64,000 bases of DNA, taken from positions 701-64,700 of the forward strand of contig JAEEXP010000003.1 of the NCBI GenBank assembly GCA_016287865.1, given 5' to 3'. A model generated the notes under the pieces. It worked only from the letters and a program-made list of their open reading frames with translations, was not told where the DNA came from and made no database searches. The DNA is from Bacillales bacterium. Its GTDB lineage: Bacteria; Bacillota_I; Bacilli_A; Izemoplasmatales; UBA1188. Every line of letters starts with the position of its first letter. Positions within the stretch are counted from its first letter, which is position 1. Made by a program: the position numbers and the translations under genes. Of the stretch, positions 3,562 through 61,363 are shown piece after piece.

Positions 3562-4084
3562 GACTATTTATATTAAACTTAAGAGATTTAGTAATGAAAT
3601 AGATAATTATATTAAGAGTATCCCGTTTGTGGATAGTCTTAATTTTACTAATCAAATTTATACTCTTAAGATTAATAAAGATAATCATGAGAATGTCTTA
3701 GATATTATTAAAGCTATAGAATATGATTTCTATGAATCATTCACTGTTTATTTTGATTTAATTGATTTAGAAGAACCTATGTTATATGAGCACTTAGATA
3801 AAGCTGACGGTAGATATAATACTCTATCAGATTTAATTATTTATTCTATGAAAAATAAACTTGATATTAGATATATCAAAGATAGAATATTAAGCCTATT
3901 AGATAAAGAAACAATCAACACTGCTTTAACTTTTATTAATATAGGTAATTCTATTAAGGCATCTAATGCACTATATATTCATAGAAATACCCTTAATTAT
4001 AGAATTGAATATATTAAGAAAAAGACAGGACTAGATTTAAAAGTATTTAAAGATCAATATGCATTCTATAGTTTAATGCTATAA
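3554..4084 (+). CDS. Putative transcriptional regulator with a PucR/CdaR-type C-terminal HTH
   Basis: 176 aa. The C-terminus IKASNALYIHRNTLNYRIEYIKKKTGLDL resembles the PucR-type HTH. It overlaps the kinase gene by 8 nt. Confidence 0.55.
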   Translation: MTETIYIKLKRFSNEIDNYIKSIPFVDSLNFTNQIYTLKINKDNHENVLDIIKAIEYDFYESFTVYFDLIDLEEPMLYEHLDKADGRYNTLSDLIIYSMKNKLDIRYIKDRILSLLDKETINTALTFINIGNSIKASNALYIHRNTLNYRIEYIKKKTGLDLKVFKDQYAFYSLML

Positions 4085-4149
4085 TTGTGCAAAATGTACA
4101 TATATTTAATTAATTAAATAAGATATAATGTGGCCATAAGGAGAACTTT

Positions 4150-5316
4150 ATGGCCAATTTAAAATTTGAACACATTGAAAAAGTATATGATAATGGAGTA
4201 CAAGCTGTCTTTGATTTTAACTTAGATGTTGAAGATAAAGACTTCGTTGTATTTGTAGGACCTTCTGGTTGTGGTAAATCTACAACATTAAGAATGGTGG
4301 CTGGACTTGAAGAAATCACATCAGGAAATTTATATATTGATGGTGTAAGAGTAAACGAAGTAGAACCAAAAGATAGAGATATCGCTATGGTATTCCAATC
4401 TTATGCATTATATCCTCATATGAGCGTATATGATAATATGGCATTTGGACTTAAGCTCAGACACTTCCCAAGCGCAGAAATTGATAAGAGAGTAAGAAAC
4501 GCTGCGGAAATCTTAGGTTTAACATCTTATCTTGATAGAAAACCTAAAGCTTTGTCTGGTGGACAACGTCAAAGAGTAGCATTAGGAAGAGCAATTGTCA
4601 GAAATGCAAAAGTATTCTTAATGGATGAACCTCTATCTAACTTAGACGCAAAACTCAGAGTTAAGATGAGAACAGAAATAGCTAAACTTCATAAACAACT
4701 TGGAGCTACAACTATTTATGTAACGCATGACCAAATTGAAGCCATGACTATGGCAACAAAAATAGTTATCATTAAAGATGGTGTTATCCAACAAGTTGGT
4801 GCACCAAAAGATATTTATGATAATCCAGCTAACTTATTTGTTGCGACATTCATTGGTACACCTGAAACTAATATTATTTTAGGTAAGGTTGATGATAAGA
4901 AAGTTTTCACATCTATTAGCGAAGAAGATGGTGAAGCAAAAGAAGGTTCATTAAAACTTAAAGTTAATGATAAAGACTTTAAGTTATTAAAGGATTTAGG
5001 ATATCTAAATAAAGAAGTATATTTAGGTATTAGACCAGAAGATATTAGTGATAAGGTTGATTCTAAAAAGGATGCGCCTACTATCACAGTCGCAACTACT
5101 GAACTTCTTGGTGCTGAAACATATATCCACTTTGAAGTGGACAAAGCTCATCTAATTGCTAAGGTTCCTGCAAGAGCGGATCTTAAAGATGATGATCAAA
5201 TTAAACTTGATTTCAATATGGATAAAGTACATTTCTTCGATAAAGAATCTACACTGGTGATTAAAGAAGGAATGGAGAAAGAAGAAATAATAGAAGGAGA
5301 AAAGGAGAGTGAGTAA
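4150..5316 (+). CDS. Sugar-type ABC transporter ATP-binding protein (MsmK/MsmX/UgpC/MalK-like), orphan
   Basis: 388 aa. Walker A GPSGCGKST, signature LSGGQRQR, Walker B FLMDEPLSNLD, and a MalK-like C-terminal regulatory domain. No adjacent permease or binding-protein gene. Confidence 0.9.
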   Translation: MANLKFEHIEKVYDNGVQAVFDFNLDVEDKDFVVFVGPSGCGKSTTLRMVAGLEEITSGNLYIDGVRVNEVEPKDRDIAMVFQSYALYPHMSVYDNMAFGLKLRHFPSAEIDKRVRNAAEILGLTSYLDRKPKALSGGQRQRVALGRAIVRNAKVFLMDEPLSNLDAKLRVKMRTEIAKLHKQLGATTIYVTHDQIEAMTMATKIVIIKDGVIQQVGAPKDIYDNPANLFVATFIGTPETNIILGKVDDKKVFTSISEEDGEAKEGSLKLKVNDKDFKLLKDLGYLNKEVYLGIRPEDISDKVDSKKDAPTITVATTELLGAETYIHFEVDKAHLIAKVPARADLKDDDQIKLDFNMDKVHFFDKESTLVIKEGMEKEEIIEGEKESE

Positions 5317-55921: not shown

Positions 55922-57130
55922 ATGAAAGCAAAAAAGAAAGTATTAAAGAAACACAACTTCGTGTTTAAAATTGTGAAAGCCGTATCTTTCCTATTCACAC
56001 GTATTAATTTGGGTTTTAGATCAAAGGATAAATATAAAATAAAGAAGGGTGAAAGAGTAATGGTTTTATCTAACCATCAGACAGACTTTGACCCGTTTTG
56101 TGTTATCTCATCATTTAATAAACCATTATACGCTGTCGCAACTGACCATATCTTTAGTGGTAAATATGGAAAAGTTCTTCATGATACACTTGGCGCAATC
56201 CCTAAGAAAAAAGGTATTACTGATTTAAGATGTGTAATGGAAATGATGAGCGTTATGAAAGAAGGAGGGTCTATTTTACTTTTCCCAGAAGGTAATAGAA
56301 CTTACGCTGAATTCCAATTCTATATTGGGTTAAGCCTCGTTCAAATGATTAAGAAGTTTCAATGCACAGTAATTCTTTATAACCTTCATGGTGGAACCGG
56401 AATAAGACCTAGATTCTCTCACAAGAAAACTAAAGGATATTTCACTGGAAACATTAAGAGAATTATGTATCCAGAAGAATACAATAAGTTAAGTGATGAA
56501 GAATTCTTAAATATTGTTAAAGATAATCTTAAAGTATTTGATAGTGAAAATGGTCATGAATATAAGAGTAAGATTAGAGCGGAATACTTAGAGAGAATGT
56601 TATTTGTTTGCCCTAAGTGTGGAAAGTTTAACACTCTATATTCAAAAGGTGAACACCTATTCTGTAATGAATGTGGTCTAACTGTTAAATATAATAGTCA
56701 TCTTCATTTAGAATCAGATGACCCATCATTTAAGTTTGAAAGACTTCTTGATTGGTGGAACTATGATAAGAAGTGGATTAGAGACTATAAAGTAGAAGAA
56801 GACAAGGTAATCTTTGAAGATAATGAAATGGAATTAATTACTGTTAATCCATTTGAAGATAAGAAATTATTAAAAGAAGGTAAATTATCTCTTACTGATA
56901 AATATTTAATATTTGAAGATATTAAATTTGAATTATCTAAACTTGAAATCGCATCTGTAGTTAGTGGTTCAAGATTAATATTTAAAGTGGGTGATACATC
57001 TTATATGGTTAAGGGTGATGAAAGAAAATCAAGATTTAACCCACTTAAATATGTGCTTATGTTTAACAAACTAGACACAGATATGAAGATTAATAAGAGA
57101 GATAATTATTATACATTGGAGGACAACTAA
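55922..57130 (+). CDS. Lysophospholipid (PlsC-like) acyltransferase with zinc-ribbon and C-terminal extension
   Basis: 402 aa. HX4D box (SNHQTDFDP), FPEGNRT, then CPKCG...x...CNECG and a C-terminal domain of about 120 aa. Confidence 0.8.
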   Translation: MKAKKKVLKKHNFVFKIVKAVSFLFTRINLGFRSKDKYKIKKGERVMVLSNHQTDFDPFCVISSFNKPLYAVATDHIFSGKYGKVLHDTLGAIPKKKGITDLRCVMEMMSVMKEGGSILLFPEGNRTYAEFQFYIGLSLVQMIKKFQCTVILYNLHGGTGIRPRFSHKKTKGYFTGNIKRIMYPEEYNKLSDEEFLNIVKDNLKVFDSENGHEYKSKIRAEYLERMLFVCPKCGKFNTLYSKGEHLFCNECGLTVKYNSHLHLESDDPSFKFERLLDWWNYDKKWIRDYKVEEDKVIFEDNEMELITVNPFEDKKLLKEGKLSLTDKYLIFEDIKFELSKLEIASVVSGSRLIFKVGDTSYMVKGDERKSRFNPLKYVLMFNKLDTDMKINKRDNYYTLEDN

Positions 57131-57131
57131 T

Positions 57132-58586
57132 ATGTTTTTAGCTGAGGGAGCTTGGAGTTTTGATTTAACTCAATTTGACTCCGTATGGAAATTCGCACTT
57201 GAAGTAGTACTATTACTTATATTTTTACTTATTGGAAACTTAATTAGAAGAGTAGTGCCATTCTTAAGAAAGGCATTTATACCTAGTGCCTTACTTGGTG
57301 GATTATTACTTCTTGGAGTAAGTATCTTCTTTGATAAAGTATTAAATTTCCCATTATTTGACGCAAGACATATGCAAATAATTACTTATCACTCTTTAGC
57401 TATTGGATTTATTGCTATGAGTCTTAAGGCAGTAGATAAATCTAAGAAACAAAAGATTGGAATGATGGCTACTCAAAATGGTATGATCACAGGTGGAACT
57501 TATATGCTTCAAGCTGTGCTTGGTCTTGGTGTATCGCTAATATTCTTTGCGCTTGGCGCTGAAAAGTTTTATGGTGCTGGTGTAATCCTACCTTTAGGTT
57601 TTGGACAAGGTCCTGGAAATGCACTTACTTGGGATATTAACTTTACTAATATGCTTAATGCTGAAGGTGCACAAATCTTCTTTGGTGAAGGATCATTTGG
57701 ACTCACTATCGCATCAGTTGGTTTCATTGTCGCATCAGTTGTCGGTGTTACTTATATTGAAATCTTTAAAAAGAAAGGACAAATTAAACCTAAAACTGAA
57801 AATCTTGAAAGAAAGGTTAGTGACTTTGAAGATGAAGGCGAAATTGAAGATAGTGAATCAGTGGATAAAACATCTATTCAAATCGCATTAGTAGCGCTCT
57901 GTTACGTCCTCGCATTTGGAATTATGTTCCTTCTTGCTAAAGTATCTGAATGGACTGGTATCGCAGTATTTAATTCAATTGCTTGGGGATTCAATTTCAT
58001 CTTTGGTGTACTCACAGCTACACTTGTTAAAGCTTTAATTAATTTCTTTAGAAAGAAAAATATTATTAAGAAACAATATATTAATAACTATCAAATGGAT
58101 AGAATCTCAGGCTTTGCCTTTGATTTAATGATTATTGCGGGTGTTGCCGCAATTGATATCGCAATTGTTAGAGATTATGCATGGCTCATTGTTGCTCTAT
58201 GTGCTGTTGGTACTATCGCAACACTAGTTTATGTAAGACTTATGACTAAACTTTGTTTCAAAGACTTCTCTCATGAAGCATTCCTAGTTAACTTTGGTAC
58301 ACTCACAGGTACCGCATCTAATGGTATGATTTTACTAAGAGAAGTAGATCCTAACTTTGAAACTCCAACCGCAGATATCTATATTCTTTCACAATTCACT
58401 GCGACTTTATGTGTTGCACCACTCCTATTCCTCTTAAATATGTGTGGTAAATCACTCACTGGTTGCTTCATTGCTCTTGGAATATTCTTAGTACTATTTG
58501 GTGTATATACTACATTCCTAGTATTAACTTCAAAAGGTATTATATTTAAGGGTAAAAAGAAAGAAACTGTTGAAGAGACTAAATAA
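57132..58586 (+). CDS. Sodium/glutamate symporter family (GltS-like) transporter
   Basis: 484 aa. The N-terminal pattern ...LLLIFLLIGNLIRR.VPFLRKAFIPSALLGGLLLL resembles GltS. It has an acidic central loop. It starts 2 nt after the upstream stop. Confidence 0.65.
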   Translation: MFLAEGAWSFDLTQFDSVWKFALEVVLLLIFLLIGNLIRRVVPFLRKAFIPSALLGGLLLLGVSIFFDKVLNFPLFDARHMQIITYHSLAIGFIAMSLKAVDKSKKQKIGMMATQNGMITGGTYMLQAVLGLGVSLIFFALGAEKFYGAGVILPLGFGQGPGNALTWDINFTNMLNAEGAQIFFGEGSFGLTIASVGFIVASVVGVTYIEIFKKKGQIKPKTENLERKVSDFEDEGEIEDSESVDKTSIQIALVALCYVLAFGIMFLLAKVSEWTGIAVFNSIAWGFNFIFGVLTATLVKALINFFRKKNIIKKQYINNYQMDRISGFAFDLMIIAGVAAIDIAIVRDYAWLIVALCAVGTIATLVYVRLMTKLCFKDFSHEAFLVNFGTLTGTASNGMILLREVDPNFETPTADIYILSQFTATLCVAPLLFLLNMCGKSLTGCFIALGIFLVLFGVYTTFLVLTSKGIIFKGKKKETVEETK

Positions 58587-58606: not shown

Positions 58607-58648
58607 AAGCTCCAAGTTATAAGAAATTTGGAGCTTTATTTTATTTTT
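58607..58648 (+). terminator. Terminator
   Basis: AAGCTCCAA-12 nt-TTGGAGCTT followed by TATTTTATTTTT. Confidence 0.85.
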
Positions 58649-58697
58649 GTATTTTTGATTTGTTATAATTTTCTTAAGAAAACAAAAGGTGATTATT

Positions 58698-61334
58698 ATG
58701 AAAAAGAAACTATGCTTAATCTTATTTTTAATACTTACTATCTTTTCATCATTCTTTTTAACTTCATGTAAAAAGAAAGAAGTTGAACCCGATGAAGAAA
58801 TAGATGATATTATTGATGGATATAATCCTTGGGAAGGAATGAATAATGGTGATGTCATTCCTCAAGATAAATATGACGCTAAATATGATGTACATTACGC
58901 AGAAGTACCAGTAATGTCATATTTTGGTTCGTCTGATGGATATGAAATATTGAATGCCGTATATTCTGATGATGTATTCTTAAAAGATTCAAATGTATAT
59001 AATCACTTCCTTGGAAGAATGTCTATTGGTTTAGCTTTATCATCTTATACACTTGAATTAACCGACAAAAAGTATGTATCTAATGACTTATTTGGATTCT
59101 TGGTTAGATGTGGATTTGATGATTTTAGTACCGAACAATACTATCAAGAAACATCACAGTATACTGTCGCATCATTAATTGGTTCTAAGAAAATAGAAAA
59201 GGATGGTGAAGAATTCACCTTAATTGGTATAGGTATTAGAAGTGGTAAGTACTATAACGAATGGATGAGTAACTTTGAAGTTGAGAATGAAAACCTCCAC
59301 CAAGGTTTTAATTATGCTGCTTCACTCGTAGTTGAAAGAGTATTAAGCTATATTCTTCAATATAATATCACTGGAAAAGTTAAATGTTGGGTTGCGGGAT
59401 TTAGTAGAGGTGCCGCAATATCTAATTTAGTTGCCTCAAAATTAAATAACGTAAAGAGTATTGGAAAAGAAAATGTATACGCTTATACATTCGCAACTCC
59501 AAGAGGCGTAAGAGAAGTAGATGATCAATCTAAGTACGATAATATCTTTAATATCGTTGGCGCATCTGACCCAGTAACTCAATTCGCTCCTGCTGATTGG
59601 GGATATCAAAGATTTGGTCAAGATTTATATCTTCCAGGTTCAGAATTCAATAGTAATTTCTCTTTAGTTTATTCTCGTGTTCAAGAGTTTGTATCACAGT
59701 TTAATTTCACTACTTACTATAGTGCGGGACTAAACTTAAGAATTAGATTACTTCTTGGATACTTAACTGAATTCTCAAAGAATGCTGGAGATTATTCTGC
59801 ATATATTCAAGGCGAATTCATTAGAGTAATAGGCCAAAAATCATTAAATAATATCGTTGAAGGTTTTTCTTCAATCATAGGCAAATATAGTTACTTTGAT
59901 GGATTTAATGAAAAAGACTTAAATAATCTAGTTGATTATATTTTAGGTATCGGGCTTACACTCAATGGTAAAAAAGGATATTTAAAGGATGAAAAAGGAT
60001 CATCGACTAATTCATTTAGACTTTTAATGCATGAACATTATCCAGAACTATATTATGGAATGATGTATTATTCTAGTGAAGAAGAATTATTTAATACTAA
60101 TGATAAGTTTGCCTATGTAATGCTTGATAAGAGTGCTGAATATGAACTATATGATACAGTAAACAATAAACTTGTCTTAAGTATAAATAATAAAGGCGAA
60201 AGAATTTTAAGTGATTACGCGAAAGATAGTCACTTAGAAATTCCAGTTTTAAACTTTAAACCATATAACGTTTTAGTTCTTCCATATGATTTAAACTATG
60301 AACTTAAATATTCTGGACTTAAAAAAGATTCAGAAATAAAATATGTTGAATGTGCTAGAAACTTCACAACTAACCTTACTTTAAATTCTAAAAAGATAAA
60401 TAGTGGTGATGGAGTTGCGCTTAAAGTTAATTCTGAATCAATGGTTGATAGTACTTCATTTAATAGTGAAAGCATTAAAGCTTCAGGCTTTGCGACTATG
60501 CTTAAGATTAACAAAGCTGGACTTACTTGGAAAGTTAAATTAATCTATATCGCTATAGGTATTACACTACTTATTTCAATTATTCCAGTATTAAGCTATG
60601 GAGTATTCACACTAATTAGTAGGAAAAAGTTTAGATTATCAGTGGTATTAAACGCTATCCTTCTTGTGGGTGTTGCAGTAGAAGAAGAATTATCTTATTG
60701 GTTCTTTAGATTTAATATATTCTTATTCTTACTATGGAAAGTGCTTTTAGTTATTGGAATAGTTCTTTCAATAGTATTATTTAGGAAGCACAGAAACAAT
60801 AAACAATTCTATATTGGTATGTTACCATTCTTATTCTTTGGTTTAGCCGTGGTATTCTTAATAGATACTAATATGGAAATTGGTTTATACGCTTTAGCTT
60901 TAGCTTCAGTATCTTTATTTATCTATTTCTTTATGCTTGAAAGGCCAAACACAAGACAAATCGCAATTGGATCAGCTATTACAATTATTCTTGAAGGTAT
61001 TAATTTCTTAATTATTTATAGACTTGTTTATTCATTTGCGCAAGTAATGGCATTCGCTATCCCATTTATTTCAATGATTATGGTTATGGCATTGAATAAA
61101 GGACCACATAGAAGATTTGTCGCATATTCATTTGTCTTAACAATCGTTCTTCTTGCGGCATACTATCTTGCAGTTAAAACAGTAATGCCACACTTACTCT
61201 TTAAGATTTCTTTATTCGCATCATTAATTATCGCATCATTCGCTGACATTCATTTTAATAAAGAGGTTGAACCAGTTAAAATAGAAGAAGAGAATAAAGA
61301 GATTAAAGAAGAAGTAATAACAGAAACAGTTTAA
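58698..61334 (+). CDS. Lipoprotein with a class-3-lipase-like alpha/beta-hydrolase ectodomain fused to a C-terminal polytopic membrane domain
   Basis: 878 aa counted from the ATG at 58698. Lipobox LTSC|K, nucleophile elbow GFSRG (59397-59411). Candidate Asp lies in GASDPVTQF and candidate His in LMHEHYPELYY. About 8-9 TM helices fill the last 270 aa or so. Confidence 0.8.
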   Translation: MKKKLCLILFLILTIFSSFFLTSCKKKEVEPDEEIDDIIDGYNPWEGMNNGDVIPQDKYDAKYDVHYAEVPVMSYFGSSDGYEILNAVYSDDVFLKDSNVYNHFLGRMSIGLALSSYTLELTDKKYVSNDLFGFLVRCGFDDFSTEQYYQETSQYTVASLIGSKKIEKDGEEFTLIGIGIRSGKYYNEWMSNFEVENENLHQGFNYAASLVVERVLSYILQYNITGKVKCWVAGFSRGAAISNLVASKLNNVKSIGKENVYAYTFATPRGVREVDDQSKYDNIFNIVGASDPVTQFAPADWGYQRFGQDLYLPGSEFNSNFSLVYSRVQEFVSQFNFTTYYSAGLNLRIRLLLGYLTEFSKNAGDYSAYIQGEFIRVIGQKSLNNIVEGFSSIIGKYSYFDGFNEKDLNNLVDYILGIGLTLNGKKGYLKDEKGSSTNSFRLLMHEHYPELYYGMMYYSSEEELFNTNDKFAYVMLDKSAEYELYDTVNNKLVLSINNKGERILSDYAKDSHLEIPVLNFKPYNVLVLPYDLNYELKYSGLKKDSEIKYVECARNFTTNLTLNSKKINSGDGVALKVNSESMVDSTSFNSESIKASGFATMLKINKAGLTWKVKLIYIAIGITLLISIIPVLSYGVFTLISRKKFRLSVVLNAILLVGVAVEEELSYWFFRFNIFLFLLWKVLLVIGIVLSIVLFRKHRNNKQFYIGMLPFLFFGLAVVFLIDTNMEIGLYALALASVSLFIYFFMLERPNTRQIAIGSAITIILEGINFLIIYRLVYSFAQVMAFAIPFISMIMVMALNKGPHRRFVAYSFVLTIVLLAAYYLAVKTVMPHLLFKISLFASLIIASFADIHFNKEVEPVKIEEENKEIKEEVITETV

Positions 61335-61336
61335 TT

Positions 61337-61363
61337 AAGAGGCCTTAGCGCCTCTTTTTTTAT
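61337..61363 (+). terminator. Terminator
   Basis: AGAGGC-cttagc-GCCTCT followed by TTTTTTT. Confidence 0.9.

Follow-up and report, generated by a model that had tools for sequence, protein, structure and literature searches.

A predicted surface lipase fused to a YhhN-derived membrane domain with replaced catalytic residues in an Izemoplasmatales genome

The stretch of DNA analysed here (hereafter the window) comprises 64,000 nucleotides of a Bacillales bacterium assigned by GTDB to the order Izemoplasmatales (assembly GCA_016287865.1, contig JAEEXP010000003.1, positions 701 to 64,700). At 58698-61334 it carries a gene for a protein, here called P0001, in which a signal peptide with lipobox is followed by a Lipase_3 ectodomain of about 575 amino acids (aa) and by nine transmembrane (TM) helices. 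We consider it likely, with a probability of roughly 0.6, that P0001 is a surface lipase which scavenges acyl chains and is anchored by a non-catalytic module derived from the YhhN family. The AlphaFold2 model of P0001 has a predicted local distance difference test score (pLDDT) of 79.7 and a predicted template modelling score (pTM) of 0.76. The features of the gene are listed below; all are on the forward strand (+), coordinates refer to the window, and the evidence is given in parentheses.

58698..61334 (+): coding sequence of the 878-aa lipase/YhhN-derived fusion P0001, stop codon included (open reading frame [ORF], homologues, and ratio of non-synonymous to synonymous substitution rates [dN/dS])
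58698..58769 (+): signal peptide with lipobox L21-T22-S23-C24
58869..59630 (+): alpha/beta-hydrolase core of a class-3 lipase, model residues 58-311 (Pfam, profile alignment, Foldseek)
59631..60032 (+): helical insert of about 134 aa, a possible cap or lid, between Asp291 and His447; model helices 321-443 (model, Foldseek)
60036..60038 (+): codon of His447, candidate third triad residue, in the motif E-H-x4-Y (conservation)
60093..60476 (+): beta-sandwich (immunoglobulin [Ig]-like) domain adjoining the membrane; model strands 470-593 (model, weak Foldseek matches to Ig domains)
60528..60620 (+): extra TM helix TM0, residues 611-641, crossing from outside to cytoplasm and followed by the basic stretch SRKKFR (model)
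60636..61253 (+): eight-TM YhhN-derived domain, residues 647-852, Lys681 kept (profiles, alignments, model, dN/dS)
61254..61331 (+): acidic cytoplasmic tail, weakly conserved and disordered in the model

The lipase ectodomain

Pfam Lipase_3 (PF01764) matches residues 191-299 of P0001 with an E-value of 1.7e-9 and 38.2 bits (cut-off 22). A search of the protein collection retrieved about 20 full-length homologues; the 20 which form alignment A1, the source of the family profile, all have a Lipase_3 match. This profile matches solved class-3 lipases and feruloyl esterase A (FaeA), the best match being diacylglycerol lipase 5xk2 (E 1e-6). In the profile alignments to 5xk2, 3ngm, and 4tgl, Ser236 corresponds to the serine of GHSLG and Asp291 to the aspartate of the (R)D(I)VP motif. 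The nucleophile Ser236 lies in G-F-S-R-G (codon 59403-59405), exactly where an earlier interpretation of the window, made from the letters alone (the sequence-only reading), had placed it, and Asp291 lies in GASDPVTQF (codon 59568-59570). That reading had also proposed a Ser-Asp-His set in class-3-lipase order, ending in LMHEHYPELYY with His447, and this order is borne out: Ser236 and Asp291 are invariant in 100 of 100 family members, while His447 and Tyr452 are each present in 99. The lone member without His447 has a gap in a truncated sequence. His447 is the sole invariant histidine and stands in the correct order for a triad; it falls outside the alignments to solved lipases. Judged by its sequence, the ectodomain is a class-3 lipase with intact and invariant Ser-Asp-His residues.

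A link to Tle1/DUF2235 phospholipases, which had been suggested by the form of the nucleophile elbow, was rejected: PF09994 does not match P0001, and it matches 3 of the 20 homologues only at E >= 0.11.

Foldseek searches with the model retrieved FaeA (2bjh, E 4e-4), a Rhizopus lipase (1tic, TM-score 0.54 on target), and the lipase-like domains of EDS1/PAD4 (probability 1.00), the latter matches being relevant to the helical insert as well. In the beta-sandwich, P529, D531, and Y534 are invariant among the 20 full-length homologues.

Instead of lipids, the ectodomain might cleave ester bonds of plant cell walls in the rumen, as a feruloyl esterase or another carboxyl-esterase, with the membrane domain as a mere anchor. 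The best Foldseek match is indeed FaeA of Aspergillus niger, a Lipase_3 protein that is also among the profile matches, and the family is concentrated in ruminant-gut genomes. We nevertheless regard this as unlikely, given that a diacylglycerol lipase ranks first among the sequence matches, that fusion to lipid-active YhhN in relatives argues for lipid substrates, that carriers of the gene are mostly fatty-acid auxotrophs, and that in this 1.3-Mb genome no plant-polymer-degrading genes adjoin the gene.

Export and anchoring

The N-terminus of P0001 has a K-rich n-region and a hydrophobic h-region, followed by the lipobox L-T-S-C, which conforms to the pattern [LVI][ASTVI][GAS]C. Lgt is encoded in the source genome (E 1.5e-50 in a genome search). 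By its sequence, P0001 is thus a predicted bacterial lipoprotein, with Cys24 (codon 58767-58769) as the putative site of acylation. The lipobox is where the sequence-only reading had seen it; of the double anchoring which that reading had found odd, the combination of lipobox and C-terminal TM domain holds for P0001 itself but is not a trait of the family, as the lipobox cysteine is conserved in just 8 of the 20 full-length homologues.

Topology and YhhN descent of the membrane domain

The AlphaFold2 model has nine TM helices (611-641, 647-669, 674-695, 709-721, 726-747, 752-772, 778-798, 803-824, and 829-852), in line with the eight to nine previously counted from the sequence. The last one ends in ..ASLIIASFADIHF, and the C-terminal domain has a pLDDT of 80.6. 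YhhN proteins have eight TM helices with both termini in the cytoplasm (N-in/C-in; PMC9052158). Because the ectodomain is exported and the YhhN bundle is N-in/C-in, an additional helix is required, and this is TM0. The eight helices that follow (647-852) are modelled in the YhhN layout; the N-in/C-in orientation is suggested by the exported ectodomain together with the basic loops.

P0001 has no match to Pfam YhhN (PF07947) at E <= 1, nor one at E <= 10 in a six-frame search of its own genome. NCBIfam assigns P0001 to no family, and a PDB sequence search with P0001 returns lipases only; no YhhN-family chain was found in the PDB by sequence. A direct hhalign comparison of the C-terminus of the P0001 clade with stand-alone YhhN proteins gave a weak match (16% probability), in the same register. 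The relatives of P0001 supply the connection. Pfam YhhN matches 5 of the 20 full-length homologues (best E 7e-12), and matches above the Pfam cut-off (31-81 bits) lie inside 850-980-aa ORFs of 11 carrier genomes. A hidden Markov model (HMM) of the C-terminus of the clade that contains P0001 (hereafter the window clade) matches the C-termini of these YhhN-positive fusions at 1e-27 to 1e-45. With hhalign, the C-terminus of the window clade aligns to that of fusions with an intact YhhN residue set over 278 columns (99.95% probability, E 7.7e-38), and the latter aligns to stand-alone YhhN with 97% probability (E 1e-10). From this chain of profile matches through relatives it follows that the C-terminal domain of P0001 descends from YhhN; at the sequence level, homology is established transitively. 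The very tentative assignment to YhhN/lysoplasmalogenase-type enzymes in the sequence-only reading was therefore right about descent; an active lipid-handling enzyme is not supported, as seven of the eight critical residues are replaced (see below).

When the C-terminal model was compared by Foldseek, no match reached significance; the lowest E-value was 0.76, to TM domains of class-C G-protein-coupled receptors (GPCRs), XPR1, and proteorhodopsin. A GPCR/rhodopsin-like topology has been reported for YhhN (PMC9052158), with which these matches are faintly consistent; we do not count them as evidence.

It had been proposed to compare fusion with split genes in relatives, and in these the two parts are fused rather than split. 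No separate gene for the C-terminal domain was found in the relatives that have short ORFs, and a search with residues 598-878 against 1.84 billion protein representatives returned nine matches, all of them fusions or apparent fragments, with no stand-alone relative. In a small clade (loci L027, L034, L049, and L058; about 670-720 aa) the protein ends after a single anchor helix, and no eight-helix domain is found anywhere in the locus.

Two further observations concern the fusions. Two genomes each carry two diverged copies, namely an Atopobiaceae metagenome-assembled genome (MAG; loci L006 and L008) and a Solobacterium MAG (L028 and L057). At locus L046 (7626-9716) the contig continues beyond the ORF, which breaks off partway through the YhhN-derived domain (HMM positions 3-146 of 287); the early stop may reflect a pseudogene, a frameshift, or misassembly.

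Fate of the YhhN catalytic residues

For TMEM86A, the residues K43, G81, D82, H104, G182, S189, D190, and Y213 have been proposed to be catalytic, and mutagenesis in TMEM86A/B showed that all but one are needed (PMC11994398). The corresponding residues of P0001 are K681, V718, V719, S737, V808, T815, I816, and L839, so that only the lysine is kept; the mapping is identical by MAFFT and hhalign. We compared the fusions with 21 stand-alone YhhN proteins from the source genome and relatives. Both aspartates, the second glycine, and the tyrosine are kept in 21 of 21 stand-alone proteins. The first aspartate, the histidine, the second aspartate, and the tyrosine are each kept in none of 16 close relatives of P0001. 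Both aspartates are missing from 21 of the 22 members of the window clade (support 100), several of which have G-N in place of the G-D of YhhN. We conclude from these replacements that lysoplasmalogenase activity has almost certainly been lost in the window clade.

Other fusions differ in what they retain. All eight residues are kept in the Coriobacteriia fusions L005, L007, L009, and L014, and L008 has Ala at the second glycine. Many fusions from Christensenellales/Clostridia show K-A-D-H-[AS]-S-D-F, with Glu at the second aspartate in one subclade. A large clade from Erysipelotrichaceae, Solobacterium, Lachnospiraceae, and Mogibacterium (L020, L030-L032, L039, L044, L047, L050, L052-L055, L060, L061, L063-L068, L070-L072, L075-L077, L079, and L080) has the fixed pattern K-A-D-Y-G-[SA]-G-[YH], in which the first aspartate is kept, the histidine is replaced by Tyr, and the second aspartate by Gly. 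The constancy of this pattern suggests a changed rather than a lost activity. Two residues are conserved across the whole fusion family: Glu664, within the E-x-E-x2-Y-W motif at the outward-facing end of TM1, and Lys681 in TM2.

The source genome also has two stand-alone YhhN genes, both outside the window. The one at C18:15154-15858 has the full K/GD/H/G/SD/Y set of eight; the one at C75:3715-4383 keeps both aspartates, the second glycine, and the tyrosine, with A-D, Q, and C-D at other positions. Stand-alone YhhN genes occur in carriers of intact and of degenerate fusions alike, and the idea that the fused domain decayed as a stand-alone YhhN took over is therefore not discriminated by their presence.

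The sequence-only reading amounted to a bifunctional protein, with an active lipase and an active YhhN-type lysoplasmalogenase in one chain. The architecture does descend from such a fusion, to judge from the relatives in Coriobacteriia, Christensenellales, and Spirochaetales that keep K-[GA]-D-H-x-S-D-[YF], and the conserved Lys681 and Glu664, as well as purifying selection on the TM domain (see below), would suit it. For P0001 we consider it very unlikely: in this protein and in 21 of 22 clade members both aspartates, which are required for activity in TMEM86A/B (PMC11994398), have given way to hydrophobic or amide residues, histidine and tyrosine are lost as well, Pfam YhhN does not match P0001 even at E 10, and the two canonical stand-alone YhhN genes in the genome could do the job.

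Selection on the membrane domain

An orthologue with 94% identity is found on contig L109. The TM domains of the two proteins are 98% identical, and their coding sequences differ by 28 synonymous and 9 non-synonymous changes (dN/dS 0.084); for the ectodomain, the differences are 87.9 synonymous and 51.1 non-synonymous (dN/dS 0.123). The nine helices and the reading frame are kept throughout the 22-member window clade. The YhhN-derived domain, despite the loss of its catalytic residues, is thus still under purifying selection.

These data bear on an alternative in which the C-terminal domain has no present function and is a remnant decaying into a pseudodomain. The loss of catalytic residues would fit, as would its faster divergence over long distances (about 17% identity in the TM part versus about 38% in the ectodomain) and the relatives that lack the domain altogether. 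Given the low dN/dS, the 98% identity, the kept helices and frame, and the confident model of the domain, we regard decay as extremely improbable.

Distribution of the family and the host genome

At least 584 relatives were found in a collection of species-representative genomes. They span four phyla (Bacillota, Actinomycetota, Spirochaetota, and Mycoplasmatota), and each of the few named database records annotates the protein as hypothetical. A ruminant source is named in 57 of 80 record titles of carrier loci. Within the source genus, the gene is absent from seven of the eight other species, with a partial copy in the eighth, and it was not found in a sample of 22 genomes representing the remainder of its family and order. 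The patchy occurrence across phyla, together with the ruminant sources, indicates that the distribution is linked to habitat rather than to lineage.

The source assembly has 1.33 Mb and is 96% complete. When it was searched, no ketoacyl synthase, no transpeptidase of the penicillin-binding protein (PBP) type, and no SEDS (FtsW/RodA-type) protein was found. Five DegV/FakB-type genes are present. The lack of PBP/SEDS proteins and of ketoacyl synthase, combined with Lgt and the five DegV genes, characterizes the host as a mollicute-like organism without a cell wall, auxotrophic for fatty acids and equipped with a lipoprotein pathway. Scavenging of lipids, as envisaged in the sequence-only reading, would suit such a genome.

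Proposed function

We envisage that the lipoprotein-type signal peptide exports P0001, so that the ectodomain would lie on the outside of the membrane of a wall-less gut bacterium. The chain would cross the membrane once via TM0 and then form the eight-helix bundle. Ancestrally, plasmalogen-type lipids were probably deacylated at sn-2 by the lipase outside the cell, and the fused YhhN domain probably cleaved the vinyl ether of the resulting lysolipid in the membrane; this form would persist in Coriobacteriia, Christensenellales, and some spirochaetes. Having lost both aspartates, histidine, and tyrosine, the bundle of the window clade can hardly perform the vinyl-ether step. Purifying selection in spite of this loss suggests that its present role is that of a membrane module without catalysis, which likely anchors or orients the lipase at the bilayer and possibly receives hydrophobic products. 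The freed fatty acids would feed a cell without fatty-acid synthase, with uptake through the DegV/FakB-type proteins. The data show the domain identities, the conservation of the triad, the YhhN descent and loss of catalytic residues, purifying selection, the monocistronic gene, and auxotrophy at the level of the genome; the substrates, the scavenging role, and the present job of the bundle are what we infer.

Several points weigh against this proposal. The lipase or esterase activity and its substrate are predicted from sequence, a feruloyl esterase heads the structural matches, and His447 is a candidate member of the triad by its invariance and order only. Even without the catalytic residues of YhhN, the bundle could have another enzymatic activity. 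It is not obvious why eight helices that merely anchor a protein should be under strong purifying selection, and TM0 alone suffices in the small clade of relatives described above. Ketoacyl synthase is missing in 17 of 20 other carrier genomes versus 1 of 14 control genomes, a comparison in which the controls for the other phyla are not lineage-matched and the MAGs reached through loci are of unstated completeness. The link to auxotrophy is not specific within the source lineage: ketoacyl synthase is missing in all 10 genomes of the source genus and family, of which the source genome alone has the gene in full and a single other one has part of it, and is present in 17 of 21 genomes from the rest of the order.

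A related possibility, which we hold to be doubtful yet worth stating, is that the family is a one-polypeptide surface machine which dismantles lipids with vinyl-ether and ester bonds. The lipase would generate the lysolipid, which the YhhN bundle beneath it would pull from the outer leaflet and cut at its vinyl ether. In the window clade the bundle would have lost catalysis and kept its lipid-binding cavity. As an acceptor or conduit, it would hand the products of the lipase, fatty acid or lysolipid, over to the membrane, from where Fak-type uptake could proceed. It would then be an enzyme turned into a lipid-transfer module, not a passive anchor.

Gene structure and neighbourhood

The elements which surround the P0001 gene in the window are as follows.

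55922-57130 (+): PlsC-like acyltransferase (Pfam Acyltransferase, E 1e-9)
57132-58586 (+): polytopic membrane protein of 484 aa without Pfam or NCBIfam match, starting 2 nt after the stop codon of the PlsC-like gene
58607..58636 (+): terminator-like hairpin, a 12-pair stem followed by a T-run, which ends the upstream gene for the 484-aa membrane protein
58661..58692 (+): putative extended -10 box TGnTATAAT (58661-58669) and ribosome-binding site AGGTGA (58687-58692), from reading of the sequence
61337..61356 (+): terminator-like hairpin immediately 3' of the P0001 stop codon
61427-62938: CrtI-family flavoenzyme

The probable start codon of P0001, by inspection of the sequence, is the ATG at 58698, 5 nt downstream of the ribosome-binding site. 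The TGnTATAAT box is absent from the output of a consensus scan, which skipped it because the -35 region is weak. With terminator-like hairpins on both sides, the P0001 gene forms its own (monocistronic) transcription unit. Its G+C content of about 30% matches that of the surroundings. Considering the homologues and an overall dN/dS of 0.12 against the 94%-identical orthologue, it is not a chance ORF. A search of the source genome revealed no paralogue, so that the gene is single-copy.

The PlsC-like and CrtI-like neighbours named in the sequence-only reading are present, but a functional link to P0001 is not supported, given the flanking terminators and the lack of conservation of these neighbours around relatives. 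The neighbours encoding the PlsC-like, 484-aa, and CrtI-like proteins are common only to the 94%-identical orthologue, where the pair of PlsC-like and 484-aa genes is retained (contig L109). They were not found around 80 genome loci of relatives, nor around relatives with 52% identity. No neighbourhood is conserved across loci, the largest recurrent flanking family being UvrA, at 11 loci. The acyltransferase part of the PlsC-like protein is extended by a segment resembling a zinc ribbon (approximately residues 228-259) and by additional sequence towards the C-terminus. At locus L105, the gene for the relative P0004 (52% identity) is preceded by two gene pairs of NTP_transf_2/HepT-like toxin-antitoxin type (358-1163 and 3623-4407).

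Patchy, habitat-linked occurrence in four phyla with absence from most congeners is typical of accessory interaction genes, and the lipase is exposed at the surface of a wall-less cell. P0001 might thus be a contact-dependent phospholipase that attacks the membranes of rival bacteria, protozoa, or cells of the host, serving antagonism or cytotoxicity rather than nutrition. This seems quite unlikely to us, because its surroundings include no conserved gene of an immunity-like or secretion-system kind, it has no Tle-type signature, and it is integral to the membrane of its producer; nutrition and damage are, besides, not mutually exclusive.

Relation to known systems and significance

With the class-3 lipases of Rhizomucor miehei/Rhizopus (4tgl, 1tic) and Aspergillus (5xk2) and with FaeA (2bjh), P0001 shares the alpha/beta-hydrolase core, G-x-S-x-G, and the Ser-Asp-His order. 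It differs from class-3 lipases in the size of the ectodomain (about 575 aa versus about 270) and in the addition of an Ig-like beta-sandwich and nine TM helices, and from the fungal lipases in the stretch that separates Asp from His, which is about 55 residues long in these and is a helical insert of about 134 aa in P0001. EDS1, PAD4, and SAG101 also combine a class-3 lipase fold with a long stretch from Asp to His; they are cytosolic signalling proteins, and the likeness is one of fold only (TM-scores 0.17-0.26 on target).

The bundle resembles YhhN, TMEM86A, and TMEM86B (PF07947; among them Legionella Lpg1991 and M. tuberculosis YhhN) in its eight helices, with the same length and helix order, and in the TM2 lysine. 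Unlike these proteins, it has no direct Pfam match, has seven of the eight residues replaced, is preceded by an extra N-terminal helix, and is fused behind a large extracellular enzyme. On sequence grounds, the P0001 bundle descends from the YhhN family but fails its catalytic definition.

The closest architectural counterparts are the intact Lipase_3-YhhN fusions (L005, L007, L009, L014, L010, L022, and L018) from Coriobacteriia/Atopobiaceae, Christensenellales, and Spirochaetales, all of them uncharacterised MAG proteins. They have 850-980 aa and share with P0001 the lipase triad, TM0, and the E-x-E-x2-Y-W and W-K motifs. In contrast to the window clade, they keep K-[GA]-D-H-x-S-D-[YF] and score above the Pfam YhhN cut-off, and they may be truly bifunctional.

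Among mollicutes, surface lipases such as P65 of Mycoplasma hyopneumoniae are lipobox-anchored lipolytic enzymes on lipid-auxotrophic wall-less cells. Such lipoprotein lipases come from different hydrolase families (GDSL) and are not known to carry a polytopic domain at the C-terminus. Lipolysis in the rumen controls which fatty acids reach biohydrogenation, and new rumen lipases are therefore of applied interest. The lipids of rumen microbes are rich in plasmalogens (PMC3587585), and lysoplasmalogen is a known substrate of YhhN (PMC3137066, PMC9052158).

Both domains of P0001 are of known kinds; their fusion was not found described in the literature searched, where the single paper mentioning YhhN as well as a lipase is, by its title, about an unrelated subject in fungi. 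As a "Rosetta-stone" fusion, the family couples a class-3 lipase to the lysoplasmalogenase step and would point to a bacterial route by which fatty-acid auxotrophs scavenge plasmalogens and other lipids. P0001 itself offers a clean natural case in which strong selection continues to act on a membrane enzyme domain after the loss of its catalytic residues, and it may thereby help to reveal what YhhN folds do besides catalysis.

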